Below are positions 1,601-61,394 of a DNA stretch of 64,000 bases, one piece after another. The stretch spans positions 1,708 to 65,707 of IMG/VR virus record IMGVR_UViG_3300042525_000901; one strand, given 5' to 3'. A model generated the notes under the pieces. It had not been told where the DNA came from and made no database searches. It was given only the letters and a program-made list of their open reading frames with translations. Source of the stretch: a virus (lineage: Duplodnaviria; Caudoviricetes). The position numbers and the translations under genes were made by a program. Within the stretch, counting starts at the first letter, position 1, and every line of letters starts with the position of its first letter.

Positions 1601-1702
1601 AAAACGGCTGTAGCGTTTGCCCTGTAAATGTTTGGGCTGTTTTGAAAGCGTGCCACGTGATGGCATTACCCCTATAAAAGAAGATTACATGGTGCACGTG
1701 GT
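1601..1702 (-). repeat. dispersed palindromic element, copy 1
   Basis: core 1651-1702 is nearly the exact reverse complement of 11810-11862; module B with CGCTACAGCCGTTTT at 1601-1643. Confidence 0.95.
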
Positions 1703-1708
1703 AGAGAG

Positions 1709-9883: not shown

Positions 9884-9966
9884 CTATCGATCCTCGTGCC
9901 ACATCTTTCAACCCCTGAGAGAACTGAAGTGCGTTGTTATGATCCTACCTCGAAAAGATCTAGCTG

Positions 9967-10070
9967 TGCCACGTGCACCACATAATATCTTTTATATAAG
10001 GGTAAGGTCATCACGTGGCACGACGCCAAAAACGCCCAATCCTTTACCATTCATTCGTTACAGCCGTTTT
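9967..10070 (+). repeat. dispersed palindromic element, copy 2
   Basis: TGCCACGTGCACCACATAATATCTTTTATATAAGGGTAAGGTCATCACGTGGCA, then ...CGTTACAGCCGTTTT. Confidence 0.95.
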
Positions 10071-11807: not shown

Positions 11808-11809
11808 TC

Positions 11810-11912
11810 TGCCACGTGCACCATGTAATCTTCTTTTATAGGGGTAATGCCATCACGTGGCACGCTTCCAAAATCCCCGCACATTCGACCCCGTAAACGT
11901 TACAGCCATTCT
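11810..11912 (+). repeat. dispersed palindromic element, copy 3
   Basis: TGCCACGTGCACCATGTAATCTTCTTTTATAGGGGTAATGCCATCACGTGGCA, then ...CGTTACAGCCATT. Confidence 0.95.
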
Positions 11913-21366: not shown

Positions 21367-21408
21367 GAGGATTGAAGTGTGTTGCCACAATCCTACTGCG
21401 ATTATCTA

Positions 21409-21510
21409 GCCACGTGCACCATGTAATTCTTTTATATAGGGGTAATGCCATCACGTGGCACGCTTCCAAAATCGCCGGAACGCTTACAGTATAAAAGCTA
21501 CAGCCGTTTG
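21409..21510 (+). repeat. dispersed palindromic element, copy 4
   Basis: GCCACGTGCACCATGTAATTCTTTTATATAGGGGTAATGCCATCACGTGGCA, then ...GCTACAGCCGTTT. Confidence 0.95.
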
Positions 21511-21603: not shown

Positions 21604-21813
21604 TTTGCGCTTATCCTGCGCTGACGATTGCGCTTTGCCTGCGCCAACGATTGCGCCAAGCCTGCGATCAACTTGAGACAGCCCTGCACATTGATTGCGC
21701 GATCGCTGCATCTTGCCTGCGATGTTGGTGCGCTCTGATTGCGCTTTCGGTTACGTTCACTATTGCGCGATCGTTTGCGCTTTAGAGATCCAGGGTTCGG
21801 CGATTTTGTCAAT
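21604..21813 (+). repeat. phased TGCG array A (16 units, 11-12 bp period)
   Basis: TGCG or variants at 21606, 617, 629, 640, 652, 663, 674, 685, 696, 707, 718, 729, 740, 752, 764, 776. Confidence 0.9.
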
Positions 21814-24598: not shown

Positions 24599-24648
24599 TA
24601 CTCAACTCCTGGCTTGTGTATGCCGCCATTATACATAAAACACACAAG

Positions 24649-29412: not shown

Positions 29413-30000
29413 ATGACTTTCTCTACTCCCAACACTGCTTTGCTGTCCCGCTCCGAGATTTCCCGTCGTGCCATCCTGGGGATGATTGATCCGTTCGTTT
29501 CGACCAAAGTTCGGGATGGTGGCATCAGCTACGGCCTGACCGAGACGGGCTATGATTTGCGGTTGTCCTCGATCGACTTCCGGCTCATCACCGGCAATCT
29601 CGATAAACCCATCGACCCGCTCAACTTTGATGCAGGCCGTGAAACGACGCGACTACCGCTTCAGGAGGACGACAACGGGCTGTACTTCGTAATGCCTCCG
29701 CACTCCTATGCGCTAGGTGTAGCGGTTGAAAAGCTCGTCATGCCGAACGATGTTCTCGCGATCGCCGTCGGAAAATCGACCTATGCTCGCGTAGGTGTGA
29801 TCGCAAACATTACCCCAATTGAACCCGGATGGCACGGATACCTGACGTTAGAATTCTGCAACGGTTCAAACGCTCCTGTACGCCTGTATGCCAACAAAGG
29901 CATTGTGCAACTGCTCTTCTACCACTGCGAGACCGGAGTGGCGTACAATGGCAAATACCAAGGCCAAGCAAACCGTGTTACGCCCGCCTGTGGTGATTGA
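29413..30000 (+). CDS. dcd: dCTP deaminase
   Basis: ISYGL...GYDLRL, GKSTYARVG, TPIEPGWHGYLTLE, YNGKYQ. Confidence 0.93.
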   Translation: MTFSTPNTALLSRSEISRRAILGMIDPFVSTKVRDGGISYGLTETGYDLRLSSIDFRLITGNLDKPIDPLNFDAGRETTRLPLQEDDNGLYFVMPPHSYALGVAVEKLVMPNDVLAIAVGKSTYARVGVIANITPIEPGWHGYLTLEFCNGSNAPVRLYANKGIVQLLFYHCETGVAYNGKYQGQANRVTPACGD

Positions 30001-30016
30001 ACTGCTGTCTAGAACC

Positions 30017-30056
30017 AAAATACCCTCGTGACGAACAATCACGAGGGTATTTTTTT
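30017..30056. terminator. bidirectional terminator between convergent operons
   Basis: AAAATACCCTCGTGA-N7-TCACGAGGGTATTTTTT. Confidence 0.8.
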
Positions 30057-30065
30057 GAGTGGTCA

Positions 30066-30392
30066 TTAACGGTCAAAGTCGTGCTTTACCAGTTCCTCGA
30101 TCGCCATTTGGGTGAGAATGTCGTCGTCCACGATTGCCTGTCGCCATCTTTTCCACGCTTGAAATGAGCTGCGAGACACCGCCTGGTATCTGTCTAGATG
30201 AGCTAGGTAGCGCTGCACACCGCCAAACACGACAGCCGAAACGAACGCGGCAACGTGCGTCGCCATTGAAATTGCGGCGGCAACGTCGGGAGGCCACGAT
30301 AGCCGGTTGGATATGATTGCACCAGCTATCGTGGCGAGATAGGTGCTGATGAGGATAGCGGCGATCGTGTGCGGTGGGAACGGAGCTTTCAT
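30066..30392 (-). CDS. small two-TM membrane protein
   Basis: two hydrophobic segments. Confidence 0.6.
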   Translation of the reverse strand: MKAPFPPHTIAAILISTYLATIAGAIISNRLSWPPDVAAAISMATHVAAFVSAVVFGGVQRYLAHLDRYQAVSRSSFQAWKRWRQAIVDDDILTQMAIEELVKHDFDR

Positions 30393-31657: not shown

Positions 31658-31728
31658 TTGCGAAACCCTCTTGGGGTGATTGATTTGCTTCTTTGTTCAG
31701 TATACACAAAACACGCGACACACACAAA

Positions 31729-32810: not shown

Positions 32811-32961
32811 GTTTCCTGCTGTCTTGTCTTTCGTTCTTGCCGCATTATACCCCAATAGCGCAAACTCGCGTTACTCGTGAAATTGACAAAAAAAAGACCG
32901 CACGAGGTTGTGCGATCAATGGGCTGTGTTTGTGAGCGGTTGAGTTGTGCCTGTTGGTTGA

Positions 32962-36897: not shown

Positions 36898-36994
36898 GCG
36901 CCTAACCTTTTGGTTTTGTTCTGACACCATTATACACAAAACACGCAAACTTGATTGATTACTTTGTCTGCGTGTTTTGCGATGGAATGCGGGG

Positions 36995-39900
36995 CTACAT
37001 GGCGAACATGCGAACAGCGGACGAGACTTTGACTGGCTGGCCGTTCCCGTCTGTTAGCGTGCCTAGGTGAGGCCAGAACAATGCCGTCCCTAGCTGCATG
37101 GTTCCATCTTCGTGATGCGTGAATGTGCGCGTGTAATCAGCGTGTGGCGTTGATTCAGTCGGCAGGACGGTGCTGATGGTCGTTGCGAACTCGATTATCT
37201 CGCCTTCCGGTGTGGTTAGTGTTCCGAGGTTCGCATCAGGATGAGCAATTTTCCATGATTTCGCCTTGTCGTCCCAAGCCCAAACCCAATCGACATTAGC
37301 TAGCCATGCGATCCATGTAATACCTTTTATATAGGGGTAAGTGGTTGACGTGGCACGCTCTGCAATCGGCTGTGATTCACTTGCTGTAACCGTTTCAGCC
37401 GATCCAACTGGTTCGTCGTCGTTGGATTCGTCCGGGGTGATATATTCCTGGTAAGCAGCCTCAAAACGCTTCTGGATTGCGACAACGGTTTCCCCTTCAA
37501 ATTTGTCTTCACTGAACCCGTACATCGTGGGTTCGCCTTTCTTCCCACGCGATTTGCGGGTGGGGTTGTAGCCCAGGAATCGAAGGCAAGCATGAAGGAA
37601 ACGAAGCGAATCACGGCGCACTGAAACACCAAAAGCGAGATCTACAAGGCTGCGTTGTTCGCGAGTTAGCGAGCCGTACCAAGCGTCAACATCGTCGCGA
37701 GTCCAGTCTTCCGATCTTTCAACCCATTGCATCAAATCAATCTCGGATAGCGCTTTGACTTTGAGGGTCATAAATCCCCAGTCAAACAAGAGGGTTTGCG
37801 ATCGGTCGTAGGTTCGCAGGCGCTTGGCATCATTCACGAGAGCGTAAGACGGATTGAGAAACGCGACGCGCAATTCAATGCGACGTAGGTAAGCGCGATC
37901 GTCATGCCGCACCAAGCGGACGAACTCGGGTGTAATCTCGCGACCGGGAACACGATCTTGCAGTAGCGACTTTTGAGCGCTGTAACGCAATCCAGGATCA
38001 ACGCAATCACGACGTAGAATCTCTAGTGCGTCTTCACGGTTAAGGCCGCCCGGTGCGTCCGCTTCACGCGCGGCCTCGGCATCAATAATTTCGTCTGCTA
38101 CGGCTTGACGATCCTCTTCGATTTCGTCGTCCCGTTCGGCCATGATTTTGGTGATAGTTTTGCCGTCGGCTTCCAGCGATTCGTATAGGTTGCCTGCGAG
38201 ATCAAACTTGGAGCAGTTGGCCGATGCCGTGTACTCACACCACGCCGTGAGCCACGGGTGAGAGTAGCGCTTCGTCACCGGATCAAACAGGCGCATCATG
38301 TTCGCTTGGTGGATTTCGTCAGGGCCTAGCCCGTGAGGTAGGCCATAGCGAGAATACTCAAGAATCGCGTGCAAGTTTTCGCGATTCACTTCCGACTGGC
38401 GCGACTCCAGTACGGACACAAACGGGCTGTGAGCCGCGTAGGTTTGGCCGCCGATCGCGTTGACAGCGATGAAGCGCTCAACCGGCACGCGGTAGCGACC
38501 GAGCATCTGTAGCGCGGCTTGGTGGGTTGTCTCGCCGCCCTGGAATAGGGCGTACACCCGATCAAAGTAGGGAACGGTGATCGACAATCCCGACTCAACC
38601 GAGGGCGAGCACAAATAGAAATCGTAGTCGTGAGCCAGGATGAAAGCGTCAGGATCTTGGATGAACTTTTGGGCAAGTTCCTGTAGCTCTTTCCCGTGAT
38701 CGCCACTCAATACTTTGGAGTCGATGCGTAAAGTTTTCGCGCCAAACGACTTGACTAAAAGCTCCTCAATTGAATGCAGCCAGATCCGTGATGACGATTG
38801 AATCAGGCATTTTTTGCGATCAGCAGCGGCAGAGAGTAAGTGCGTTTGCAGTGCCTCGTCACAGCCGGTACGAGTTGCTTTCCCGTTCGAGCCGATTGAC
38901 CCATCAAACCAGGTGACGGGATAAGCGATCGCGGTGTCGTATTTATTGACGTGCGCGTGAGCCTTGAACTCCTGAGAGGCGATCGCACGCACGGTGCGGA
39001 CTGATTTTGATGACGCGGCTGCATCAGCAAGAATGATGTGACGATTGCCTCGAAACAGCTCGCCCATCAATCCAAGGATTTCGCAACGGTCATTGGCGTT
39101 GATGGTTCCGCCCAGCAGTGCGTGGGGGAACACCGACTCGCATTCGTCAATGAAGACGATTGTGTTTTCGTGACTGCTACCGTCCCACCACGGCATTTCC
39201 AATTTTTTTAGGGAATCAGCGCAGAGGAACATGACGCGAGAGTTTCGCATCTGATCCAAACTGGCATCAGCTAAAACAGTCGAGCCAAACTCTGATAGAC
39301 GCTCAACCGTTTGGCGGCCAAGAGCGTTGCGGTATCCGATGACTAGCACTCGCAGTGTTGAGTCTTCTCGTAACCACTGAGCAAGCAATTCTGTCTTGCC
39401 TGTCCCCATCGGAGACTTGACTACGGTAACGCCCTTTTGACGCGGTAGGGCGATCGCACTTGACGAAAGGTAGCGGAGTTCGTGCTCGGTTGTAGGGATA
39501 TCATCAAGCCCGTCTAGTCGCCGCATTTCGCGCTTGACCTTTTCTGTGAGAATTCGCTTGCGAACATCGCGTCGGGTTTGCCCTGGTTCCCGACGCGATT
39601 CAACGTCATCAGCATCCAACACGCAGTTGGCGAACCACGTGTCTACGTCAACGAACTTGATTGAGCTTTTGGCCGCCGGGGTCTGATTCAGGAGATCGTC
39701 ATAATCAAAGCGAGATTTGTCATACCCGTGACCCCAATCGGCGATCGTGACCTCTTCCGATGCTGCATCCAGAATCGTCAGCGTCTTCCAGTCCCGCTTG
39801 GCAACCCCCGAGTTAACGAGCGAACCCGCGTCTGGGTAAAACACGACTGGTAGCTTTTGCCCCGCCATTTTGCGGATCTCTTCAATCTCGCTCATCAGCC

Positions 39901-40726
39901 ATGCAGGGCTGTTGAAGAACTGGCCACCGAAGCAGCCGACGAACACTGTCTCACCATCGAGATGGGCTGAGTAAAACGGTTTCCCTGTGCCTTCGATTAG
40001 ACCAATACGCTTGACGCGCGATCGGTCAGCAGGCCAGCACACCGTCAGCGGTTGCTCACCTGTTTCCTTGAGGTGCGGTGTCGGTGCGTTCGGGCGTTTC
40101 TTCGTGGTGCTGGAAAGGTGCTTGTACTTGCCCCCGCGCTTGTCGTTCATCGCAATCTCGAACGCGAGGATTTGACCTCGTGCGGAGAGCTTGGGCAGGA
40201 TGTAGCCCGAGCCGGGAGTGATTAGGCAATCACCGTCGATCGAGACTCCGGGCAAATTCGGATTTGTCGGGCGCACCTTTTGCCATTGAGCCACGGTGCG
40301 GAACCCAGCCTGAAATGCGATTTCCCAGGAAATACCACGACGCTTCATTTCGTCGCGATGCGCTTGCGACAATTGCAGATTGGCAATGATGTCACGGTAA
40401 AGCGAATCGCGTTCTGAAGTCGGCAGGGCGATCGCCTGACGCGCGGATTCTGTTTCCAGTACTTTTTCTCGGTTCTGGCGTCGCGATTCCGCCCAGTCGC
40501 GTTTGCGTTGCTCAATCTCTTCAGGAGATAGTGCGTTTTCATCTTTGAGCAGAACGCGAGTGATGCCAGTTGTGTCCTCACAGTCCCAACACATGAAACC
40601 GCCTTGCCCAACGGTTAGCTTGCCATCGCACAACGGGCAGTGGTATGCGTGCTTCAGCCCCCGTGGGTGAGACTCCGAGACGTAGGGTTGCAGCTCAACC
40701 AGTCGATCTGATAGAATATTAGACAT
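36995..40726 (-). CDS. replication initiator: Zn ribbon, Toprim-like (DUF3854-like) and SF2 origin-binding helicase (CyRepA1-like)
   Basis: CPLC..CWDC; LIEGTGKP...FYPDAG...D.DD Toprim-like; KSPMGTGKT, YRNALG, DECES, ADA, SPSVESGLSI, QMLGRYR; AGGAGG RBS. Confidence 0.85.
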   Translation of the reverse strand: MSNILSDRLVELQPYVSESHPRGLKHAYHCPLCDGKLTVGQGGFMCWDCEDTTGITRVLLKDENALSPEEIEQRKRDWAESRRQNREKVLETESARQAIALPTSERDSLYRDIIANLQLSQAHRDEMKRRGISWEIAFQAGFRTVAQWQKVRPTNPNLPGVSIDGDCLITPGSGYILPKLSARGQILAFEIAMNDKRGGKYKHLSSTTKKRPNAPTPHLKETGEQPLTVCWPADRSRVKRIGLIEGTGKPFYSAHLDGETVFVGCFGGQFFNSPAWLMSEIEEIRKMAGQKLPVVFYPDAGSLVNSGVAKRDWKTLTILDAASEEVTIADWGHGYDKSRFDYDDLLNQTPAAKSSIKFVDVDTWFANCVLDADDVESRREPGQTRRDVRKRILTEKVKREMRRLDGLDDIPTTEHELRYLSSSAIALPRQKGVTVVKSPMGTGKTELLAQWLREDSTLRVLVIGYRNALGRQTVERLSEFGSTVLADASLDQMRNSRVMFLCADSLKKLEMPWWDGSSHENTIVFIDECESVFPHALLGGTINANDRCEILGLMGELFRGNRHIILADAAASSKSVRTVRAIASQEFKAHAHVNKYDTAIAYPVTWFDGSIGSNGKATRTGCDEALQTHLLSAAADRKKCLIQSSSRIWLHSIEELLVKSFGAKTLRIDSKVLSGDHGKELQELAQKFIQDPDAFILAHDYDFYLCSPSVESGLSITVPYFDRVYALFQGGETTHQAALQMLGRYRVPVERFIAVNAIGGQTYAAHSPFVSVLESRQSEVNRENLHAILEYSRYGLPHGLGPDEIHQANMMRLFDPVTKRYSHPWLTAWCEYTASANCSKFDLAGNLYESLEADGKTITKIMAERDDEIEEDRQAVADEIIDAEAAREADAPGGLNREDALEILRRDCVDPGLRYSAQKSLLQDRVPGREITPEFVRLVRHDDRAYLRRIELRVAFLNPSYALVNDAKRLRTYDRSQTLLFDWGFMTLKVKALSEIDLMQWVERSEDWTRDDVDAWYGSLTREQRSLVDLAFGVSVRRDSLRFLHACLRFLGYNPTRKSRGKKGEPTMYGFSEDKFEGETVVAIQKRFEAAYQEYITPDESNDDEPVGSAETVTASESQPIAERATSTTYPYIKGITWIAWLANVDWVWAWDDKAKSWKIAHPDANLGTLTTPEGEIIEFATTISTVLPTESTPHADYTRTFTHHEDGTMQLGTALFWPHLGTLTDGNGQPVKVSSAVRMFAM
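37303..37405 (+). repeat. dispersed palindromic element, copy 5, inside the rep CDS
   Basis: GCCATGCGATCCATGTAATACCTTTTATATAGGGGTAAGTGGTTGACGTGGCA...CGTTTCAGCCG; encodes SAETVTASESQPIAERATSTTYPYIKGITWIAW on the minus strand. Confidence 0.88.
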
Positions 40727-40850: not shown

Positions 40851-40998
40851 GTGAATTTGTTCGTGATTTTGATGGGTTCATCCCACTCGCCTCAACCAGG
40901 GTTCCCCCATCTTACCCTGATATTCTCAAACTCAAACAAAAAAACGCTGACGATTTTGTCAACGTTTAAAAGTGTCACTTTTTGAGAATCAATGAGAA

Positions 40999-43660: not shown

Positions 43661-43711
43661 CTTGCTTAAGTTCTTGCATTAGTAGTGCCGATTTATTTCG
43701 GCTGTGATACC

Positions 43712-43740
43712 ACTATACACAAACGACGCAAATAACGCAA
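43712..43740 (-). promoter_or_regulatory. TTGCGT-family promoter
   Basis: TTGCGT-TATTTGCGTCGTTTGTG(17)-TATAGT. Confidence 0.7.
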
Positions 43741-43744: not shown

Positions 43745-44206
43745 TTAAGCTGACTGCTGGATAGCTTTTGCCGTGTGGCTTTGAAGGTCTCGTAGGGAGT
43801 AGGTTGTAACAGCGGAGCGCATTTGAAGTGTTGCCCATTTCTTGATAGGCATTCCGCCGATAGTCTCGCACGATCTGAAAGCAAACCGTAGTAGCGCATC
43901 GTTTCGACACGTCCATCGCGGGGCGGGAACATGCGCGGAAACCATCGCCTCAATGGGCGTTTCGTCAAACAACTTGGCAATATCGTCGGGTAGCAGCGCC
44001 GTTGTCGATTTGGTTTTGTGGGGAATCGTTAGGACTGGCGCAAACAGTCCCGTGCCGGGGTCTGTTAATTTGCCTCGTTCAAAATCTTCGATCCACTCTT
44101 CAAACGCAAGACCTAACGCCTGAGTTCGGCTCAAGTCTCCGTACTTTAAGAGTGTTGCTCTTGCGAAAACTTTTAGGGTTGGGCTTGCGACTCGGATCAG
44201 CTTCAT
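43745..44206 (-). CDS. hypothetical, possibly tandem RHH-like DNA-binding protein
   Basis: LIRVASPTLKVF...LSRTQALGLA and CRNDALLRFAF segments. Confidence 0.45.
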   Translation of the reverse strand: MKLIRVASPTLKVFARATLLKYGDLSRTQALGLAFEEWIEDFERGKLTDPGTGLFAPVLTIPHKTKSTTALLPDDIAKLFDETPIEAMVSAHVPAPRWTCRNDALLRFAFRSCETIGGMPIKKWATLQMRSAVTTYSLRDLQSHTAKAIQQSA

Positions 44207-44265
44207 GGGGTCAGGATAAGTAATGGGCTTCTCCTGAATAACCTATCGTGCATGTATAACGCAAA

Positions 44266-45027
44266 TCACCCCATCGGCATAGTTGGGATTTTGAGCGTTG
44301 AGATCATCTGCTCAGTGATGATCGATGCCGCCGGTAACATGCCTGCCCACACTAGGCTAACTTCTGAGCTTGCGTACAGCCCCCGGTAAGTTGAGTAAGG
44401 CTGAATTGAGAACCCGGCCTCATTCCACATCTCTCGGACGGACGAATCTTTCATTGACGGGTGAAACGGCACGTGGCCTTTCTCGGCGCAGCCTTGGGCG
44501 TGATACGACGTGCCACACTCAGGGCATTCAAGATGTTCAATGCGGAACCCGCCCAAGCTAACCTTTTGGACTCCGTAGCGCATCGCCTCAAGTAGTGGCG
44601 AATTCGAGGGAAGAAACGCACTCGCGAGGCATCCCCACGCCCCGCCCTCGGCACGGACGATCGCGCGGTTTTGTTCGCCATAGCCCGCCAAGTCAAGGTA
44701 CGGCGTCGGGTCGATTTGAATCGCGATCGCGTGAAAGATGATTCCGTGAATCGCTTCGACTTCCCACTCGTGATCAATCATGAATCGATTGCCGACTACG
44801 AGCTTTGCCATTTTCTCAATTTCGGTTCTATCCCATCGTTCGGCGTTGTGATTAAGCAGAGTATCCGCCACCAGAATCGGCACGATCGCGACGTCACTTG
44901 CTCCGTACGGTTCAGCATTAATCGGGCGGTATTGATTGATGAGCGCCAACGCCTCCTGACTAACTGCGTCAGAAGTTTCGTCATCTTCACTAACTCGACT
45001 TTCGGGGAATGGCTGCAAGGTGGGCAT
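44266..45027 (-). CDS. prohead protease with Zn-ribbon insertion
   Basis: FMIDHEW, KVSLGG, CPECG...C..H, SEVSLV.AG of HK97-type proteases. Confidence 0.75.
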   Translation of the reverse strand: MPTLQPFPESRVSEDDETSDAVSQEALALINQYRPINAEPYGASDVAIVPILVADTLLNHNAERWDRTEIEKMAKLVVGNRFMIDHEWEVEAIHGIIFHAIAIQIDPTPYLDLAGYGEQNRAIVRAEGGAWGCLASAFLPSNSPLLEAMRYGVQKVSLGGFRIEHLECPECGTSYHAQGCAEKGHVPFHPSMKDSSVREMWNEAGFSIQPYSTYRGLYASSEVSLVWAGMLPAASIITEQMISTLKIPTMPMG

Positions 45028-45171
45028 GGCGACAAGCTCTCATGGTTCCACCAAATTATCATCGTTTTGACGGTGACGTGATGACCTGTCGCGAGGGCGA
45101 TCGCCGCTAACCTAAACTACAATCAGCCGCCAAAATTAAGCGATCGCCCAGAACCGTCGGACGTGAGCCCA

Positions 45172-45271
45172 AAAAACGTTAGACAGCTTGAGGCGTAAGC
45201 AGCGCAGCCATTTTAGCTTTGTGCCACGTGAACCACTTACCCTTATATAAAGGTATATACGTGTCATGGCA
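45172..45271 (-). repeat. dispersed palindromic element, copy 6 (diverged)
   Basis: TGCCACGTGAACCACTTACCCTTATATAAAGGTATATACGTGTCATGGCA at 45222-45271, between divergent protease and portal genes. Confidence 0.85.
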
Positions 45272-45303
45272 GAAAACCACTCCGGATCAAAAGGACTAAG
45301 ACC

Positions 45304-46518
45304 GTGCCGATTTCCCGATCGTGGGCGAACCTATTCAAGAAAATCGCGAATCGAATTCGGGGCGCAAAACCGAGCAATATTGATCCGCCCGGAACACAGC
45401 GACCTGCGCGGAAGGAACGTTGGCACGATACGACGGTTCCGTCCGGGCGGGATTACGATAACGAAATTGACGACATTCCGGTGCGGTCGCCGGACTACGC
45501 GATCGCCGTGATGGACTTGTGCCGCAATTGTCCCGAGGCGGCAGCGGCGATCGATACAATCGTCCACGCAACCTTGACCGATCCGACTGGTGATGAGGTC
45601 GGCTTCACCGCTACCGCTGACGAGGGATACAGCAACATCCAAGCAATCCTGGATCGGGTCATGAATGACGCTGTGGGTGGCCTTAAGTCACAGCAAGCAC
45701 TGTTTGACCTGCTAGAGGGTGGTAACGCCTTTGCGACGCCATTATTAGAGGTTGCACCAAACGAGACGGGCTACCGATTGCGCGGCCTATCGTTTCGGCC
45801 ACCGTGGGAGATGTTCCGGATTGAGGATAAGCACGGGAACTTGCAGGGCTTTGAGCAGCGAGCTTATACGCACGACACCGACGCGGAATTCTACCACCCG
45901 CTTGCCTGCATTCATTGGCGGTTCCGTCAACGCAAGCTTTATGGGCGATCGCTCTTCCACGAATCGATCCAAGATTGGGCAGATCTAAAAGAAGTGAAAA
46001 CAGACTTGATTCGAGGCGCTAGAGCGGTCGGCCTGAATCCGATGGTTCACACGATGCCAGAGGGTTCTGGATCGTTTTACCGTGAAGAGTACCAAAAAGC
46101 GCACCAGGCCAGCTTACGGACGGGTGCGGTCGCTCATATCTACCTCGATTACGGCGCGACGGTTGGGCGGGTAAACACGTCCGACCCAGACCTTGAGGCG
46201 CTGCAATCGACGATGGAGATTTTGCAACGACGAATCATCCTCAAGTCGCACGTGCCTCCGTACTTGATGGGAATGATGCAAGCAGGAGCGCAGGATCTTG
46301 CGACCCAACCCGCCCACCAATTCGCCCGCTTTATCTCAAATTTGCGAATGTGTTTTTCGCAGGGCATCCGGCAGGCGATCGATCTTGAGTTGGCGCTACA
46401 CGGAGTACCGCGTGAGCAATGGAAATATCAGCTACAGTTTCCAAAGACGGTGATCAACCCGTACGAACCGCAGAGCGATCTCAATAATCCTCAGCTACTC
46501 GACACGCAGCCGGATTAG
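45304..46518 (+). CDS. portal protein
   Basis: PEAAAAIDTIV, GNAF, CIHWR....YGRSL, HVPPYLMG portal motifs. Confidence 0.85.
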   Translation: MPISRSWANLFKKIANRIRGAKPSNIDPPGTQRPARKERWHDTTVPSGRDYDNEIDDIPVRSPDYAIAVMDLCRNCPEAAAAIDTIVHATLTDPTGDEVGFTATADEGYSNIQAILDRVMNDAVGGLKSQQALFDLLEGGNAFATPLLEVAPNETGYRLRGLSFRPPWEMFRIEDKHGNLQGFEQRAYTHDTDAEFYHPLACIHWRFRQRKLYGRSLFHESIQDWADLKEVKTDLIRGARAVGLNPMVHTMPEGSGSFYREEYQKAHQASLRTGAVAHIYLDYGATVGRVNTSDPDLEALQSTMEILQRRIILKSHVPPYLMGMMQAGAQDLATQPAHQFARFISNLRMCFSQGIRQAIDLELALHGVPREQWKYQLQFPKTVINPYEPQSDLNNPQLLDTQPD

Positions 46519-46814
46519 GGGTAGACTGGAATACAAAGGCACGAACAAACATTCGTGTGTGGTTCGCCTCTCTGACGTTCCCGGAAAGAAAAGACAGAGA
46601 GGCTAAGTTATAAAATTCGACTCGCTCCTGCGTTGCCCGAGACACTTGCTCTCAGGTTTTGACGTTTCAGGGGCGTTTCGACTTTTAGGCATTTTTGTCA
46701 GTATCACGTATGATTGACGCATCTCAAAGAGAACCCCGATCGCTCGACCCCAAGTCACAGGATCGCCGGAACCCGCCCCGAATTCGTTCGGGGTTTGCCG
46801 TGTAGGGAGACAGT

Positions 46815-47030
46815 ATGGAAACGCCTGGACATTACCAACACTCACGCTCAACACCGTTCGAGACCTTCCTGAATCACTACGGCGCTGATGCAACGATCGC
46901 CGCGTGCCGATTTAATGTATGGAAATACCTAGACCGATTTCAGCACAAAGGGACGCCGATCGAAGATCTCAAAAAGGCTCGCCACTACATCGACTTGCTC
47001 ATTCAAATCACCGAAAATAATGGCGACTGA
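46815..47030 (+). CDS. DUF3310 (T7 gp1.7-like) protein
   Basis: P.HY...NVWKYLDR..HKG..IEDLKKARHYID. Confidence 0.85.
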   Translation: METPGHYQHSRSTPFETFLNHYGADATIAACRFNVWKYLDRFQHKGTPIEDLKKARHYIDLLIQITENNGD

Positions 47031-47301
47031 TCTGATGACGACTGCGTTAAGCGTGAGTGTGCCGCTTTACATTCAGCGTTTTTGCGATCGCGGTTACCCA
47101 CCCACGCCGAGCGAAATCAGCCGAGTGCAAGATGAAGTATTGCCGATTATCATGGCGGCAGATAGCGAGCTGATGTACAAATCTAAAAGCACACCGTCGG
47201 GACGTATCGCTAACAACTTCAACCGCTTGGCCGAGGCGATCGCAATTCTTGCTCATCAACCGGGCGGAATCCATATCTTTGATCACCACTGGCAGGCATG
47301 A
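47020..47301 (+). CDS. hypothetical protein
   Basis: operonic ORF. Confidence 0.6.
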   Translation: MATDLMTTALSVSVPLYIQRFCDRGYPPTPSEISRVQDEVLPIIMAADSELMYKSKSTPSGRIANNFNRLAEAIAILAHQPGGIHIFDHHWQA

Positions 47302-47302
47302 A

Positions 47303-47479
47303 ATGATACTCCCAAAACTTGACCTAACGTTGAGCATTGAAACTCAGCTCATGGTCGAACAGCAAAAACGCCAAATTGAGAATGCCGACCCGGAAGCCCT
47401 GCGAGAAATTTGCAAGTCACTGGTCATTCAAAACGCCACGCTGATGACCGCAGTTCGATCGTTGATGAAACCGGATTGA
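47303..47479 (+). CDS. NblA-like phycobilisome degradation protein
   Basis: 58 aa; LTLSIETQL....KRQIE..D.EALRE....L..QN......VRSLMK two-helix pattern of NblA. Confidence 0.6.
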   Translation: MILPKLDLTLSIETQLMVEQQKRQIENADPEALREICKSLVIQNATLMTAVRSLMKPD

Positions 47480-47484
47480 ACAGC

Positions 47485-47520
47485 ACCAAAAAGCCCGCCA
47501 ATTACGACGGGCTTTTTGGT
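47485..47520. terminator. bidirectional terminator
   Basis: ACCAAAAAGCCCG-N10-CGGGCTTTTTGGT between convergent genes. Confidence 0.8.
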
Positions 47521-47522
47521 GG

Positions 47523-47924
47523 TTATAGGTTAAACAATGAGAGCTGTTCTTTTTGTCCTGCGGTGCGTTTTAGCGCTTCATCAGCTTGGCGTTTTGCTTT
47601 GCTTTGGCGCTGTTTGATTTCCTTTTGTCTGGCTTCTAAGTTTTTTCGCTCAATCGTCCAACGCTTTTCAATCGCTTTGTCTAAATCAGGGTATCGTTTA
47701 GCCAGAAAGCTTGGGATGCCAAACAGGGCAAAACCTAGCTGAGTTCGTCGTGTTGGGTAGTCGAGTCCTTCCCAATGCATTCCGACGTTCATTCCCGCCT
47801 GACTTCTTATCATCAGTGTCCCCGATTCCTCAAGCGATACGTTCATCCCGAGGGATGAAAGTTTATCAAGTATTTCGCCGCTTTCTTCCGTGAAGATTAG
47901 GTCGAGAAATTCGTCTTGTGTCAT
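47523..47924 (-). CDS. hypothetical protein with C-terminal clamp-binding-like motif
   Basis: ends EQLSLFNL. Confidence 0.65.
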   Translation of the reverse strand: MTQDEFLDLIFTEESGEILDKLSSLGMNVSLEESGTLMIRSQAGMNVGMHWEGLDYPTRRTQLGFALFGIPSFLAKRYPDLDKAIEKRWTIERKNLEARQKEIKQRQSKAKRQADEALKRTAGQKEQLSLFNL

Positions 47925-47925
47925 G

Positions 47926-48126
47926 CTAGTACATCGCCTGTAGCACGCGCTCGGCTACCTCCGGATCATTCCCAAGACAATCGCCTTCGTCGTGAAAATA
48001 GCGCGGTTCCTCAGGTATTGCCCAGAATGCTTTCCCGCGTTTTTCAATAATGAAGGGCATATGATCGGGTTTGTCCGCTGCGAGCTGATCCGCGATCGCC
48101 TGTAGCTGTTCTAATTGGCTTGTCAT
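47926..48126 (-). CDS. hypothetical protein
   Basis: coupled to nrdB stop. Confidence 0.5.
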   Translation of the reverse strand: MTSQLEQLQAIADQLAADKPDHMPFIIEKRGKAFWAIPEEPRYFHDEGDCLGNDPEVAERVLQAMY

Positions 48127-49160
48127 TAAATTTCGTCCCATCCTGTGACGCTGCTGCTCATCATGTAGCTGGTAACTTGTGCCTCAAAAAAGTTCGCTTT
48201 GGTTGACCCGTCGGCCTTCGTGTCTGCGAATTTTTCGAGATGAGAATACGGGTTTTTGGTGAACACCTCATCAGCGTAAAGCGGCTGTAGCCCGATCGCC
48301 CGTAGCCGTTGGTTTGCTAAGTACTTGGTGTATTGTTCCGTGCTTTCTGATGTGATACCGAGAATGTCGTCTCCGATAATGTGGTTCGACCACAAGCATT
48401 CGTGTTGCACCGCAGCATCAAACATTTCGTAAACGCGATCAACCGAATGAGTGAATGTTTGCATCGCCTCCGGGAGCATTTTCTGATACAGCCGAACGTG
48501 ACTCAATTCGTCACGATTGATCATCTTAAAAATGTCGGCACTCCCTGGCATAAGCTGACGACTTGCCAGGTTGTAGTAAAAGCAAAATCCATTGTAGAAG
48601 TACAAGCCTTCTAGCAAGTAGTCCGCTACCAAAGCAGTAAAGTAATTCTCTTGCGTTGGGCTGTCAATGTACGCTTGGTACATCCCCGCAATAAACTTGC
48701 ATCGATCGCGCAATACCGTATCTGTCCGCCAAAAGTCGTAAACATTTGATCGGCGATCGGAAGGAACGATCGTTTCAATCATGTACTGATATGACTGATT
48801 ATGCATCCCCTCTTGGCTGATTTGTTCTGCCATACACAGCGAAACTTCGGGAGCAGTAACGCTACTTTTAAGATGAGGAATGTTGCAAGTTTGAACTGAA
48901 TCGAGAAACGTTAGGTAGCTAAGAATCCCGTCAAATGCACGGCGTTCTTTCGGCGTCAGATTGACGTAATCCGTCACGTCCGAGGTTAGGTCAAGCTTTT
49001 CGGGAATCCAAAAGTTCTGACGCATTTGCTTGTACAGCCCGACCGCCCAATTGTATCGAACATCGTTGAGCTGCATTAGGTTTGTTGTTTCACCAAACCA
49101 GATTGTTCGGTGAATTGTATCGTCGTTTCCGTCTGGGTTGAAAATGAGATTGGGATGCAT
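48126..49160 (-). CDS. nrdB: class I ribonucleotide reductase beta (R2) subunit
   Basis: NFWIPE, LTFLDSVQ, QEGMHNQSY, LEGLYFY.GF, NRDELSH, NFFE. Confidence 0.95.
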   Translation of the reverse strand: MHPNLIFNPDGNDDTIHRTIWFGETTNLMQLNDVRYNWAVGLYKQMRQNFWIPEKLDLTSDVTDYVNLTPKERRAFDGILSYLTFLDSVQTCNIPHLKSSVTAPEVSLCMAEQISQEGMHNQSYQYMIETIVPSDRRSNVYDFWRTDTVLRDRCKFIAGMYQAYIDSPTQENYFTALVADYLLEGLYFYNGFCFYYNLASRQLMPGSADIFKMINRDELSHVRLYQKMLPEAMQTFTHSVDRVYEMFDAAVQHECLWSNHIIGDDILGITSESTEQYTKYLANQRLRAIGLQPLYADEVFTKNPYSHLEKFADTKADGSTKANFFEAQVTSYMMSSSVTGWDEI

Positions 49161-49214
49161 TGATTCAATCATTAAACTTCTGGGGAATGAGTGTGTACCT
49201 GCCAGACTTGTTGC

Positions 49215-49796
49215 TTAGGATATTTTCTGCCAACGATAACCCGCACATTTGTAGCCATACCGAAAGCTTCTCGCTAATGTTGATTTATGAACATAAACAT
49301 CTTTGGCCGCCTCCGCAATGGTTGGGTACACTTTTCCTGTGTCCAAGTTCTTTACGGGAGTTCTGCGAGGGGACTGATCTAAGACGTATTGCACGTAATT
49401 TTCGCCCAAAAAAGCTGCGACAGCTTCTCGGTCTGCTCCGCACAGCAGAAAAGGATTTCGCTTCGCCACTCTGCGAACTGCTGTTGTTGAAACGCCCTTG
49501 TCATAGCCCAGCTCTGCTCGGGATGTGTAGCGCTGCAATGCGTGGTAAGCCTGGTTTCGGCTTACCCCAAGAATTCGCGACCACTGAGCGACGGAAAACC
49601 GATCAATCTGCGGACACACAACACGGACATCCTCAGCTTTTGAGACTACCTGAGTGAGCGTCCGATCGTGCCCATCGCGATCGGGGTTTTTCTTTTGCCA
49701 TTGCAGAAACAATCTCACGGCCTCCTGCGTGCCGTGGTAGCACACAAGGTCGTATATTTTATCCACCTCATCGGCTGTCCAACGCTTTCGAGCCAT
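49215..49796 (-). CDS. DNA-binding protein with C-terminal NUMOD1/IENR1-like domain
   Basis: VKNLDTGKVYPTIAEAAK...KCAGYRW. Confidence 0.7.
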   Translation of the reverse strand: MARKRWTADEVDKIYDLVCYHGTQEAVRLFLQWQKKNPDRDGHDRTLTQVVSKAEDVRVVCPQIDRFSVAQWSRILGVSRNQAYHALQRYTSRAELGYDKGVSTTAVRRVAKRNPFLLCGADREAVAAFLGENYVQYVLDQSPRRTPVKNLDTGKVYPTIAEAAKDVYVHKSTLARSFRYGYKCAGYRWQKIS

Positions 49797-49969
49797 CCTG
49801 CTTAACCCCAAAAGGGCGAAATATACACAACAAACACATTGTACGTTAATGCGCGTCGGGAGTGCTGAAATAAGTGCTGGACGTTGCCGTAGTTGAGTTG
49901 TGATGACAGGTCAAAGCATTCCAGGCGATTGCGTCAATATATAGATATCAAACATTTCAACGTGAGTAG

Positions 49970-51883
49970 ATGACAGCACGTAACGTATTGAGTGAGCTTC
50001 GATCGCTCTACGCAGACGCGGCGAAAAGCGCGGAAACCCCGATCGCCGATTCAAGCGCTGTGGCCGAAGCTCGGCTCAGTGCCATGTCTGTCGAAGCTCC
50101 TGCTTCCCCCCAACCTTTAACGCATTCGGATACCGTAATGGCAAAAGAACCGACAGCACCCCAGGCCGAAGCGGTCGATCCGGGTGCGACAACTGAACCA
50201 CTGAAGCACGACGCGCCTAGCGGCCTCGATACCGCTAATGATGACGAGATCGTCGTCAGCGCTGAGAACCTGCAAGCGATGGTGAACCTCAAAGCCTCGC
50301 AAGCGTTGGCATCGCACAAAGCCCAGATGGATGCTGAGAAAGAACGAATCGAGCGCGAAAAACAGGAGGCGATCAAAGCCGCTGAGTCGCTGTCTCACGC
50401 TGTTACCGAAGCCGAGAAACGCGCGGCAAAAGCTGAGAAAAACGCAATGCAACTCGGTCGCGTGTTTGAGGCCATGTCGCACGGTCAAGGCGTGCCGATC
50501 GGTGCGCTTGGACATGGGTTCGTTCCTGATGGTCACGGCCCCGTGATCAAAACCGATTCAGTCCCGGCCTACCATGCCGACGGTTTGGCTCGCGATTTCA
50601 AAAACCTGTTTGAGAACTCTCGAACGGTGATGGTTCCTGATCGCCTCTCGAACCGCACCTATTCCACTCGTGATACCGCCCAGCTTCGTGAATTTGTCAG
50701 CACGACCGATCGCCACGCCCTCCGCTTGGGAATGGAGAAGATGATGGCTCGTGACGGCTTGCTGACCGGCGGTGCTCGCAAGCATGACATTACCGCCCCG
50801 GTTGACGTTCCTCACCTTTATCGCGAGTTCATCTCGTCTGAGCTGCGTGAAACGTTTAACCCGCAACGAATCTTTCACCAGTTCGTCAAGCCGTACTCGC
50901 GACCTGACGCCGCCCCCGGCCAAACGGTAACGATTCCACGTATCCATCGCACGACCGCTGCTACAACCGCCTCGGCATGGAAGGCGACCTATCGCGGCGC
51001 GGTCAACACAAACCGTCAGCCGATCGAATCATCTAGCGTCATCATCCCGATCGAGATGTGGATGATGGGTACGGAGAACGTAGCCCCGATCGCCGTTTCC
51101 GAATTCGTGTTTGCCTCGTCGCTGACCGAGCTGTTGTCGGCAGTGAACGAAAACCTCAATCACAACTACCGTGATTGGGAAGACATGGTGATTCGTGAGA
51201 TTTACTTTAGCTCCACTCGTAAGCTGTACAGCAATGACGGCGCGGTTGTGGATGCACCGGGCAGCGTGACCGCCGGTGGCACATTCACTTACGAGTTCCT
51301 GGTCAATCTGTGCGCTCGCATGGCAGAGGAGGGCGTGCCTCCGTACACCGCTGATGGTAAGTACATCCTCTGGGTGTCTCCGAAGCAGTTGGCGCAACTG
51401 AAGCTTTCGATCCAAGAAAGCCGCGCACCGAAGGATGACGTAGACATCAAAGCTCTGAGCGAGATGCTCATGCCGTCGATGAGCCTACCGAACCAGTACA
51501 CGCTGTCGGGTTACTCCGGTTCGTTCGCTGGTTTCCACATCTTCTCGTCTAACGCGGTTGGCGTTGCTGATTCCGGCACGGCTGGCGATATTGCAGTTCA
51601 AACTGAAACGACCGGCGCTGGCGCGAAACTCACCCGATCAGCGTTGGCCTTTGGTGGCGCTCCGGTTGGCAAAGTTGATGCCATGCCGTTCGAGATTGTT
51701 GAAGACGACTACCACCGCTTCAATAGCGAGCGTTCCTACATCTGGCGTTCTGCGTGCGGTGTTGCCGGTATCGACGTTGACCCCATCCGCACCCCGATCG
51801 CGGAAACCGAAGGCACTACGAGCCGCGCATCTGAGCAAGTAGGCGTTTACCGCGTCCATACCACCGACCTACCCGTCGCATAG
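49970..51883 (+). CDS. major capsid protein with N-terminal scaffold-like region
   Basis: coiled-coil N-third; IFHQFV...GQTVTIPR, YILWVSPKQLAQL, GSFAGFHIF HK97-fold-like pattern; upstream of sheath. Confidence 0.8.
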   Translation: MTARNVLSELRSLYADAAKSAETPIADSSAVAEARLSAMSVEAPASPQPLTHSDTVMAKEPTAPQAEAVDPGATTEPLKHDAPSGLDTANDDEIVVSAENLQAMVNLKASQALASHKAQMDAEKERIEREKQEAIKAAESLSHAVTEAEKRAAKAEKNAMQLGRVFEAMSHGQGVPIGALGHGFVPDGHGPVIKTDSVPAYHADGLARDFKNLFENSRTVMVPDRLSNRTYSTRDTAQLREFVSTTDRHALRLGMEKMMARDGLLTGGARKHDITAPVDVPHLYREFISSELRETFNPQRIFHQFVKPYSRPDAAPGQTVTIPRIHRTTAATTASAWKATYRGAVNTNRQPIESSSVIIPIEMWMMGTENVAPIAVSEFVFASSLTELLSAVNENLNHNYRDWEDMVIREIYFSSTRKLYSNDGAVVDAPGSVTAGGTFTYEFLVNLCARMAEEGVPPYTADGKYILWVSPKQLAQLKLSIQESRAPKDDVDIKALSEMLMPSMSLPNQYTLSGYSGSFAGFHIFSSNAVGVADSGTAGDIAVQTETTGAGAKLTRSALAFGGAPVGKVDAMPFEIVEDDYHRFNSERSYIWRSACGVAGIDVDPIRTPIAETEGTTSRASEQVGVYRVHTTDLPVA

Positions 51884-51886
51884 GCC

Positions 51887-52243
51887 ATGACTTACACCCG
51901 AACCGAACTAGCCAATATGAGCGCTAACGAGGTTCGGGAACTAGCGTTAATGCTTGACCTTGAGTACGTCAACAAGACGGAAGCGATCGAACTGATCCTT
52001 GCGTCAGAATCGACGGAGCCAACAGAAGATCCGCTAGTTCTCGAACCCGAGCCAATCCCAAACTCCGAGCCCGCTTGCGAAATCAAGCCGGTTGCCTCGC
52101 AGTCACAATACCCTACGGAACTCCTGATCCGACTAGGTCAGCCGCTTTGCCGTACTTGTGGCGCTCCGAAGGCGACCGATCGCTACGGCCAAATCGTTTG
52201 CGCGGCTGGAAATTCCGACACGTCCCAATGTCTCTTTAAGTAG
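51887..52243 (+). CDS. hypothetical protein (HEH/Rho-N-like N-terminus, Zn finger)
   Basis: ELANMSANEVRELA...KTEAIELI; CRTC...C...C. Confidence 0.6.
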   Translation: MTYTRTELANMSANEVRELALMLDLEYVNKTEAIELILASESTEPTEDPLVLEPEPIPNSEPACEIKPVASQSQYPTELLIRLGQPLCRTCGAPKATDRYGQIVCAAGNSDTSQCLFK

Positions 52244-52249
52244 AACCTC

Positions 52250-53761: not shown

Positions 53762-53766
53762 CCACC

Positions 53767-54222
53767 ATGCCTAGACCCCAAAACGCACGAACCGAATCCA
53801 TGTTCGTTGTGACGATCTCCGGTATTCCGGGCTATGCCGAATACTGGCAAACCTGCGAAGGATTGGAAGACGAGGCCGACTCGGGAGACACCTACAGCGA
53901 CGGCCTGAATCGCACACTCAAGAATCTACCTGGCCCGCGCAAAGTAGCAAACTGTACGCTAACCAAAGCGTACGATCATGTTGCCGATCGCGCGGTGATG
54001 TCTTGGTACGATGTCTGGTGCGAAGGTGATGTCCCTCCGGTCACCGTCACGGTTCAGCCCGTCCGGTACTGCAACGAAGCACCCGAGCTTGACGGTGAAC
54101 CCATCGTCCTGCAAGGTTGCCGACCGACAAAGCTGACCCTCCCAAATATCGACAAAAAGTCATCGAACATCGCTATGCTGGGATTGGACTTGACCGTTGA
54201 GCGTATCCAGTTTCCCCGCTAA
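53767..54222 (+). CDS. tail tube protein
   Basis: follows sheath; CTLTK, CRPTK...DKKSSNIAM..L.LTVE. Confidence 0.85.
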   Translation: MPRPQNARTESMFVVTISGIPGYAEYWQTCEGLEDEADSGDTYSDGLNRTLKNLPGPRKVANCTLTKAYDHVADRAVMSWYDVWCEGDVPPVTVTVQPVRYCNEAPELDGEPIVLQGCRPTKLTLPNIDKKSSNIAMLGLDLTVERIQFPR

Positions 54223-54241
54223 TCTCACCCGATAACACAAG

Positions 54242-54860: not shown

Positions 54861-54872
54861 GCCGCCCGTTTT
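54839..54872. terminator. bidirectional terminator
   Basis: AAAACGGGCGGCT-N8-AGCCGCCCGTTTT. Confidence 0.8.
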
Positions 54873-56091: not shown

Positions 56092-56093
56092 AA

Positions 56094-56797: not shown

Positions 56798-56900
56798 GGA
56801 TCGGCCAGGACGTTTGCTGCGTAAATGCTTGAGCGATTTCGAGGGTGTGCCACGTGAACCCTTTACCCCTATATAAAAGAATTACATGGTGCATGTGGCA
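56798..56900 (-). repeat. dispersed palindromic element, copy 7
   Basis: TGCCACGTGAACCCTTTACCCCTATATAAAAGAATTACATGGTGCATGTGGCA at 56848-56900. Confidence 0.93.
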
Positions 56901-56941
56901 AATATAATGGGGTAAGACAAGAACACAAAAACAGGTAAAGC

Positions 56942-57708: not shown

Positions 57709-57809
57709 AAAACGGCTGTGACGTAATCACCCAAAGCGTCACAGCCGTTTTCTATGCCTGCCACGTGACCTCATTACCCTTATATAAAAGAATTACATGG
57801 TGCATGTGG
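57709..57809 (-). repeat. dispersed palindromic element, copy 8 (perfect module-B palindrome)
   Basis: AAAACGGCTGTGACG-N13-CGTCACAGCCGTTTT, then TGCCACGTGACCTCATTACCCTTATATAAAAGAATTACATGGTGCATGTGG. Confidence 0.93.
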
Positions 57810-57887
57810 ATCTCGATTGGCCGACTCTCGCGACAGGTCAGATCAACCCAGCGAAGCGAGTGAAGATGTAATCACCAACCTTGATCG

Positions 57888-61016: not shown

Positions 61017-61021
61017 CTTTC

Positions 61022-61124
61022 TGCCACGTGCACCATGTAATCTTCTTTTATAGGGGGAAAGGCATCACGTGGCACGCTTCCAAAATCGCTCAAAGATTCA
61101 CGCTACAAACGTTACAGCCGTTTC
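61022..61124 (+). repeat. dispersed palindromic element, copy 9
   Basis: TGCCACGTGCACCATGTAATCTTCTTTTATAGGGGGAAAGGCATCACGTGGCA, then ...CGTTACAGCCGTTT. Confidence 0.95.
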
Positions 61125-61195: not shown

Positions 61196-61394
61196 CTTGA
61201 GATCCGGGTTGCGCTTTCCCCGCGATCTCGTTTGCGCTTTGGGTGCGTTTTGGCTGCGCTCATCTTGCGATCTGATTGCGCGATCGCCGCGAACGAGTTG
61301 CGCTTGTCCTGCGTTTTTGTTGCGCGATCGGTTGCGTTCACCATTGCGTGATTGTTTGCGCTTTAGCGATCCAGCCTGTCGCCATTTTGTCAAT
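61196..61394 (+). repeat. phased TGCG array B (15 units, 11-12 bp period)
   Basis: TGCG or variants at 61198, 210, 221, 233, 244, 255, 266, 277, 288, 299, 310, 321, 333, 345, 357. Confidence 0.9.

Follow-up and report, generated by a model that had tools for sequence, protein, structure and literature searches.

A dispersed repeat family of a putative freshwater cyanophage with one copy translated in frame inside a CyRepA1-type rep gene

Introduction

Origins of replication embedded in the initiator gene are familiar from lambda O, SPP1 gene 38 and P1 repL, and SPP1 carries further copies of its origin site elsewhere in the genome. Dispersed phage repeats also include T7-type promoters, the stoperators of mycobacteriophages and the centromere sites of N15. 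Among the palindromic elements of Rickettsia and the REP sequences of bacteria, palindromic repeats roughly 100 nt long, a copy may be read in frame as part of a protein gene. Here we describe an element of about 103 nt that occurs in nine copies, all on one 65.7-kb contig (IMG/VR record IMGVR_UViG_3300042525_000901), one of which is translated in frame within rep, the gene of a primase-helicase of the CyRepA1 type, a family in use for building cyanobacterial vectors. The stretch analysed, referred to as the window, comprises 64,000 nt (bases 1708-65707 of the 65,707-bp contig), and coordinates are those of the window. Overprinting of a working DNA signal on a coding frame is already known for a few phage origins; at this locus it can be read from the sequence, in the frozen silent sites of a conserved core, a substitution that removes a stop codon and the worst codon usage of the gene.

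The locus shares features with several described systems and departs from each. As in the initiator-gene origins, among them N15 repA (PMC2847241), a cis site lies here inside the coding sequence of the initiator, in a tolerant part. In contrast to such initiator-gene origins, we found nine copies instead of one or two and two half-sites instead of an iteron array; the A+T core spans just 10-12 bp, and the rep copy is antisense relative to most family members. The Synechocystis plasmid pSYSA encodes a CyRepA1 protein of the same Rep family, to which the phage protein is assigned with 250.5 bits against a cut-off of 200. In pSYSA the cis region needed for replication is reported to lie upstream of rep together with an antisense RNA (PMC9978351), and priming is proposed in the spacer upstream of rep, whereas the copy considered here lies in the gene itself and belongs to a contractile-tailed phage. 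Intergenic repeats of halovirus HF2 are reported to carry promoters (PMC8707807). Promoter-bearing repeats are likewise dispersed, conserved over tens of bases, provided with an A+T motif and placed between genes, but the orientation of the present element is not tied to gene direction and one copy is intragenic. From the Rickettsia and REP elements the family is set apart by its strict core, silent-site conservation, lack of stem covariation and the presence of nine copies in one phage genome.

Results

A profile hidden Markov model (HMM) of about 105 positions was built from the eight other copies only, leaving the rep copy out, and was used to search the 65,707-bp contig. Nine full-length matches were obtained (Table 1), of which the rep copy scored lowest, and the remaining matches were partial or opposite-strand self-matches with E values of at least 7e-5; opposite-strand self-matches of the module B part of the model (see below) fell at c8, c4 and c1. 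A 26-nt degenerate core pattern likewise gave nine matches in the window against 0.00 expected from 100 shuffles. BLAST of copy c4 against the 4.8-Mb assembly placed the family only on its own contig, three matches elsewhere having E values above 3. Element patterns returned no match in viral contigs, none in genome contigs and a single one in metagenome contigs, which was without any other element feature, and blastn of the element against 50,697 phage records found no match.

The copies are 53-84% identical in pairwise comparison. In alignment orientation the element reads TGCCACGTG, CACCATGTAAT, a core of the form (C)TTTTATA(T)A(R)GGGKAA, five variable bases, TCACGTGGCAC and then module B, of about 50 nt, which in the family ends in ACAGCCGTT. 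Its two CACGTG hexamers start 41-42 bp apart, the A+T core occupies about 10-12 bp and the right half-site ACGTGGCA is invariant in all nine copies. The preliminary description of this stretch had called the element palindromic, which applies to the inverted repeat of the outer 8 bp and not to the asymmetric interior. Among the predicted stem pairs only one in 13 shows a double change, and the left-arm changes of c6, c7, c8 and the rep copy are uncompensated on the right side. A maintained RNA hairpin was rejected, there being no covariation and ordinary fold z-scores and energies in 7/9 copies; no Rfam family was found, nor any tRNA in a tRNA scan. The invariant right half-site, the uncompensated left arm and the unremarkable folds point instead to sequence-specific recognition.

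Every intergenic copy adjoins the end or the start of a gene, and three lie between divergent genes. The open reading frames (ORFs) that overlap them are all short, and three of these (10069-10587, 21498-21821 and 60995-61351) gave no family match when scanned. In c8, module B forms a perfect hairpin of 16 bp with a T run after it. A programmed -1 frameshift by way of c8 was considered and rejected: a -1 ORF exists (57666-57863), but the 25-nt overlap has no slippery site. A T4-like late promoter was rejected as well, the core motif being found solely inside element copies. The window holds 22 CACGTG hexamers, 15 within element copies and seven outside, where a rough expectation for 64 kb of equal base composition is about 16, and the hexamer may be avoided outside the elements.

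The copy within rep had been described as lying in frame past the conserved body of the 1243-amino-acid (aa) product, as the sole copy within a gene, and as having a degenerate left arm. All of this was borne out: the copy is full length, the ORF map puts the other eight in gaps, and the left arm reads AGCCATGC where the family has TGCCACGT, with 5/8 positions in agreement. Such decay is not special to the coding copy, since c8 also agrees at 5/8 and c6 at 6/8. By eye, in the alignment, the rep copy and c6 share an AGTGGTT block, an extra core base and a CCATG left arm; this arm being common to both, the decay is not a product of coding.

The rep copy encodes Rep residues 1108-1141 in frame, the peptide of residues 1109-1141 being SAETVTASESQPIAERATSTTYPYIKGITWIAW. 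Core and left arm together specify TYPYIKGITWIAW, where a Trp-rich C-terminal region begins, and the core brings with it a rare Ile codon on the rep strand, ATA, with a relative use of 0.08; module B encodes a linker rich in Ser, Thr and Glu, SAETVTASESQPIAE. In the frame equivalent to that of rep, each of the other copies has one to four stop codons, including a TGA common to all eight, and the rep copy has none. The non-coding state is thus the norm for the family. At 37347 the right box of the rep copy is changed from the family sequence TCACGTGG to TGACGTGG, and this C to G substitution turns the in-frame TGA into TCA, so that the stop is removed.

We then consider how far the copy is conserved as DNA. 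Of the 34 columns without variation among the eight other copies it keeps 32, although overall it is just 56-64% identical to any one of them. In the same leave-one-out test the other copies break none to two columns, save c6, which breaks 8/40. Third codon positions account for 13 of the 34 invariant columns, and synonymous alternatives exist at 12 of these. Conservation at synonymous positions had been put forward earlier as a check by way of homologous rep genes; in the version carried out here, which compares copies inside one genome, the family base is kept at all 12 silent sites. In the variable columns, by comparison, the rep copy has the majority base at only 12/23 third positions (Fisher P = 0.003), and its best agreement with any single copy at these positions is 13/23. 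Codon adaptation of rep is lowest at the element: the 25 lowest 34-codon windows all start at codons 1100-1128. Resampling of synonymous codons for the same peptide gave P = 0.022, and a gene-wide permutation of codon adaptation gave a weaker value (P = 0.078). Taken together, the 32/34 columns, the 12/12 silent sites and the codon-adaptation minimum argue that the in-gene copy is under selection as DNA. Membership of the family, dual coding in frame, silent-site conservation and a stop-avoiding substitution are all evident at the level of sequence. The copy is very probably a functional DNA element of some kind, and appears to be a genuine, selectively maintained member of a nine-copy cis-element family specific to this phage.

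The host gene is of the initiator type. Rep has a Zn-ribbon-like CxxC pair at its N-terminus and passes the NCBIfam CyRepA1 model NF042913 (the score given above) over residues 431-1054. The Toprim-like Pfam domain DUF3854 (PF12965) was not reported for Rep at E <= 0.01, and remote relatives (P0005-P0008) carry it. Relatives numbered 1643 at E <= 0.001, the best apart from Rep itself being 30% identical. Searches of viral contigs with Rep or the Rep alignment found no related loci, and a Rep search of genome contigs found four, at 24-27% identity, of which two are truncated ahead of the 3' end. When Rep was aligned with 12 of its best relatives, conservation ended near residue 1092 (...VVAIQKRFEAAY), past which the relatives have unalignable tails of 7-165 aa; the element therefore lies in a linker between the body and the Trp-rich C-terminal part. 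The AlphaFold model of residues 1054-1243 has a mean predicted local distance difference test score of 32.9. A word search with the C-terminal 119 aa found no stand-alone homologues, and no Atlas lead was obtained. A 'TYP' motif seemingly shared with homologue tails was present in one homologue only and was treated as chance.

Protein variants were compared among 13 near-identical cluster members (98-100%). The core peptide, residues 1124-1139, is invariant in all of them, and the linker encoded by module B varies among strains (S1116N, with V1107S just upstream). All four combinations of linker and C-terminal haplotypes occur, which indicates recombination somewhere within residues 1102-1176, the interval that holds the element. 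Recombination in rep was also seen between residues 843 and 1099.

A family of similar build was found in the Leptolyngbya phage Lbo402-yong5, whose tail sheath is 39.5% identical to that of the contig phage. It consists of 11 copies of a 53-nt element, GTCCACTT-N37-AAGTGGAC, and the literature search found no published description of these repeats. In both families 8-bp inverted end boxes with a common CCAC...GTGG enclose an asymmetric stretch of about 35-37 nt whose core is T-rich/purine-rich; both number about ten copies in both orientations, and both are intergenic, adjoining tape-measure, baseplate (wedge), portal/scaffold and lysozyme genes. The alignment of the two scores about 10 standard deviations above shuffled sequences, partly from the shared CCAC...GTGG ends. 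The Lbo402-yong5 element differs in its box sequence, in having both boxes perfect in 11/11 copies and in lacking module B, and its copies often form inverted pairs (three times), unlike those of the contig phage. They lie 1-88 nt from start codons, and none is in the helicase gene. Lbo402-yong5 is temperate, with an integrase, and has its own DNA polymerase. The annotated GTG starts of two of its coding sequences (14466-14828 and 29727-30371) run through a copy, with an ATG 1 nt and 33 nt beyond, respectively, and are probably annotated too far upstream.

It had also been proposed that the rep copy is the ancestral site from which the intergenic copies were derived. This part of the preliminary description did not hold up. 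The in-frame TGA is common to all eight intergenic copies, the rep copy has the lowest score against the family profile, left-arm decay occurs in intergenic copies too, and the helicase gene of Lbo402-yong5 is without a copy. Nothing supports the rep copy as founder; the tree of copies is unrooted, and descent could run in either direction.

Table 1. Position and setting of the repeat copies, the parts of the in-gene copy and associated features. Coordinates are window positions except for the last row.
Feature	Position	Strand	Remarks
Copy c1	1601..1704	-	97.4 bits; gap 1562-1708 between two - strand genes
Copy c2	9966..10070	+	divergent gap 9884-10068 beside an 832-aa lysozyme/NlpC-like gene
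Copy c3	11809..11911	+	fills gap 11808-11923 between a tail-completion gene and a baseplate gene
Copy c4	21408..21509	+	gap 21367-21497 after a tail-protein gene; phased TGCG array next
rep copy	37302..37404	+ (antisense to rep)	HMM E 8.4e-17, 57.1 bits, model positions 3-104
Left half-site of rep copy	37302..37309	+	degenerate: AGCCATGC against family TGCCACGT, 5/8
Core of rep copy, CCTTTTATATAGGGGTAA	37323..37340	+	rep strand codes T-Y-P-Y-I-K-G
Right half-site of rep copy, GACGTGGCAC	37347..37356	+	contains ACGTGGCA
Module B of rep copy	37357..37404	+	imperfect second palindrome (ATCGGCTG...CAGCCGAT)
Copy c6	45172..45272	-	divergent gap 45028-45303 between the replication-module operon and the portal gene
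Copy c7	56799..56901	-	divergent gap 56703-56941
Copy c8	57709..57810	-	gap 57691-57887 between a 107-aa gene and the tape-measure gene; orientation opposite to both
Copy c9	61021..61124	+	gap 61017-61408, starting 5 nt past the tape-measure stop; phased TGCG array next
rep ORF	36995..40726	-	1243 codons/aa
TGCG array 1	21606..21779	+	12 TGCG/TTGCGC repeats, 11-12 bp spacing or multiples, one strand
TGCG array 2	61210..61360	+	12 phased TGCG repeats, one strand
Sigma-70-like -10 box (TTTGTGTATAAT)	36929..36940	-	just downstream of the rep stop; second repeat family
Lbo402-yong5 copies	L006: 3863, 6351, 6431, 14749, 16496, 25590, 30277, 30379, 41391, 41493, 48179

Discussion

The reading we prefer, with a probability of roughly 0.4, is that the element serves as a regulon-type protein-docking control site, similar to an operator or promoter; both the binding of a protein and the regulatory role are inferred. 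The element would form a docking cassette for a sequence-specific protein, in which the invariant half-site ACGTGGCA is paired with a weaker inverted partner some 45 bp away; the two bracket the fixed TTTTATA(T)A(R)GGGKAA core, and the looser second palindrome of module B comes after them. Such sites would punctuate the many short transcription units of the phage, and the rep copy might exert the same control over the rep 3' end, the downstream genes or an antisense RNA. The setting of the other copies favours this, all eight being intergenic and three of them between divergent genes, and in alignments the opposite strand of the conserved block resembles, by eye, GTGCCA-17-TATAAA/TATATA. The Lbo402-yong5 copies, close to start codons and at comparable junctions, and the promoter-bearing repeats of HF2 (PMC8707807) point the same way. 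Several observations weigh against such a role. Orientation is inconsistent: read towards module B about 6/8 intergenic copies enter a gene start, and read the other way 4/8 do; both c8 and the rep copy run antisense to what surrounds them. The -10-like hexamer is without its final T, and a promoter scan of 44000-62000, which covers c6-c9, returned 12 sites against 11.7 expected, with an element-associated site only at the edge of c7. The capsid-sheath operon, which is covered by contigs from an RNA library (49970 onward), has no copy. A separate sigma-70-like promoter family probably serves the early genes of the - strand, and one of its members lies right after rep, so that an internal promoter in rep would not be needed. 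RNA contig cover over rep is patchy and low and weighs for neither this reading nor its alternatives.

The control-site reading must be set against the possibility that the rep copy is a cognate origin of its own gene product. Rep would bind the ACGTGGCA half-sites through its variable C-terminal part, open the TTTTATA core and prime there, with the origin inside the initiator gene and the intergenic copies acting as secondary origins or as Rep-binding control sites. The location suits this well: the gene is a primase-helicase gene of the initiator type, and the site, conserved as DNA, falls where its 3' part encodes the linker. A pair of inverted boxes flanking an A+T core is also what UL9 binds in herpesvirus oriS, and the helicase region of Rep has a UL9-like Pfam match (Herpes_ori_bp, PF02399, E = 5e-7). 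By analogy with N15 repA the proposal is plausible: bidirectional replication of N15 is reported to start within that gene (PMC2847241), and Rep bears a distant similarity to the helicase part of N15-like RepA proteins (VP882, phiHAP-1), with 22.7-23.9% identity by tblastn. We nevertheless consider it somewhat less likely than a control site. Nine copies are many for origins, the A+T core extends over 10-12 bp rather than tens of bp in surroundings that are not A+T-rich (a G+C content of 0.467 over the 60 nt at 37320-37379), and the rep copy offers two half-sites only, the left one matching at 5/8, without an iteron array. The iteron-looking phased TGCG arrays that follow c4 and c9, which themselves speak for origin-type sites, have no counterpart within 400 nt on either side of the rep copy. 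The GC skew is uninformative and shows no switch at its position. The Lbo402-yong5 family places no copy in the helicase gene, and a 24%-identical Rep homologue on a contig of a cyanobacterial metagenome-assembled genome (MAG) has no repeat with a copy in its 3' part. Replication by pSYSA CyRepA1 is reported to need a locus upstream of rep besides the rep gene (PMC9978351), and replication by CyRepA2 its ORF and an upstream region (PMC10079941). The phage has an AT-rich, repeat-bearing stretch of its own upstream of rep, which is another origin candidate. If the site were nonetheless an origin, it would give the CyRepA1-type initiators borne by phages their first known cis site.

Other explanations fare worse. 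Some other structural DNA site for a phage protein, be it a dispersed centromere-like site, a hotspot of recombination or module exchange, or a site of packaging or condensation, would accommodate the random orientation of the copies, which fits a direction-independent function, and one centromere site of N15 is reported to lie within repA (PMC2847241). The element marks the very point at which the conserved Rep body gives way to the variable tail, in the interval where recombination was detected; however, recombination also occurs at residues 843-1099, and a hotspot at the element does not follow. Moreover, Pfam and/or PHROGs scans of 68 ORFs, a set that leaves some 30 small ORFs outside, detected no ParA/ParB, integrase or protelomerase, and the asymmetric conserved core and module B would be left unexplained, so we regard such a site as rather improbable. 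A fossil copy without present DNA function, retained only for a needed peptide, seems quite improbable. It would draw on TYPYIKGITWIAW, which opens a possibly folded Trp-rich region, and on the invariance of residues 1124-1139 in the 13 cluster members, but protein selection cannot explain 12/12 degenerate third positions or rare codons such as ATA, and module B encodes a low-complexity linker that varies among strains. Very improbable, finally, is a selfish palindromic repeat of the REP or Rickettsia type, one copy of which landed in frame in the tolerant linker. Dispersal of a palindromic repeat of about 100 nt in both orientations, the tight filling of intergenic gaps and the single in-frame copy would all agree with it, and poor codon usage at the element and the stop in the rep frame of 8/8 intergenic copies would fit a non-coding ancestry. 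Yet the copies are old (53-84% pairwise) and still share a strict core of 32-34 columns, the stems lack compensatory changes, no target-site duplications were seen in the flanks and, within the assembly, no other contig carries the family. The strict core, together with the frozen silent sites of the rep copy (12/12), makes a drifting selfish repeat unlikely.

The TGCG arrays are, in our judgement, better origin candidates than the rep copy. They are non-coding, lie at an identical offset about 100 nt beyond c4 and c9 and are the only such clusters in the window; each ends in TTTGCGCTTTAG..GATCCAG..TTTTGTCAAT. An iteron origin, a parC-like centromere and a terminase-binding site are all candidate functions. 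One could go further and imagine a network of origin-type sites recognised by the CyRepA1-family primase-helicase of this lytic-looking phage, with one site dual-coded in the rep linker, the arrays at c4 and c9 as main origins and the rest doubling as control points, and with the Lbo402-yong5 family representing the same system in a culturable host; we hold this to be more doubtful still than an origin at the rep copy.

Together, the element family and its look-alike in Lbo402-yong5 suggest that freshwater cyanophages have a system of this kind for cis-regulation or replication. The literature search found no published description of such a system, and no origin or late-promoter logic for related cyanophages. 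The 12 silent sites and the half-site ACGTGGCA make the proposed dual role in coding and binding directly testable.

Further features of the contig

The contig is the longest of 640 in its 4.8-Mb assembly. Its G+C content is 53% against 67.7% for the assembly, and the cyanobacterial HIP1 octamer occurs at 1.17 per kb against 0.26 per kb in the assembly, 4.6 times more densely than in the rest. Owing to these differences, it looks like cyanophage (cyanomyovirus) DNA that was mis-binned into an unrelated high-GC MAG. Pfam and PHROGs scans identified genes for portal, tail sheath, tape-measure and baseplate proteins and a split large terminase, and the contig also encodes a ribonucleotide reductase small subunit, dCTP deaminase, a Holliday-junction resolvase, a DnaN clamp, helicases and DNA methyltransferases. 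The tail sheath is 33-40% identical to those of the Nostoc/Anabaena phages A-1(L), N-1 and YongM and of Lbo402-yong5. We read the contig as a putative near-complete genome of a freshwater cyanomyovirus, on which no terminal repeat of at least 11 nt was found. The stretch is present in 18 lake-water DNA runs and two RNA runs.

Phage YongM has no such dispersed family. It carries clusters of TGTAACG/CGTTACA inverted repeats at two places (L007 36256-36340 and L008 15037-15130), one about 350 nt upstream of a VirE-like primase-helicase gene and one close to the end of the genome, and these may be a pair of origins.

The AT-rich stretch upstream of rep (40882-40998, with a G+C content of 0.32 at 40920-40979) lies next to a 51-codon ORF and carries direct repeats (GATTCTCA twice, TTTGAG twice) and a TTGACA hexamer. 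In pSYSA, the ssr7036 locus has a similar place upstream of CyRepA1.

The large terminase is divided between two ORFs, the ATPase at 3504-4505 and the nuclease at 6374-6973, with a KilA-N domain gene (4533-5300) and an ORF without family match (5326-6264) between them, an arrangement that suggests the insertion of a mobile gene. A second KilA-N protein is encoded at 55070-55549. A 560-codon ORF whose product has an EAL (c-di-GMP phosphodiesterase) domain occupies window positions 1-630 and continues leftward on the contig, at whose left end it lies; it represents either a signalling gene carried by the phage or a piece of host DNA. Contigs from RNA run X19 stop at window positions 44987 and 47216 with an identical non-matching tail of 28-29 nt at both, which may be adapter, artefact or a shared RNA end.

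The second repeat family, with its sigma-70 -10 box (TATAAT-bearing), reads GCGTGTTTTGTGTATAATGG on the - strand. Strict matches lie at 24628-24639, 31699-31710, 36929-36940 and 56714-56725, three of the four being 12-42 nt ahead of - strand start codons, and looser copies occur near 32844-32875, 43693-43740 and 62737-62767. The members of this family are probably early promoters.

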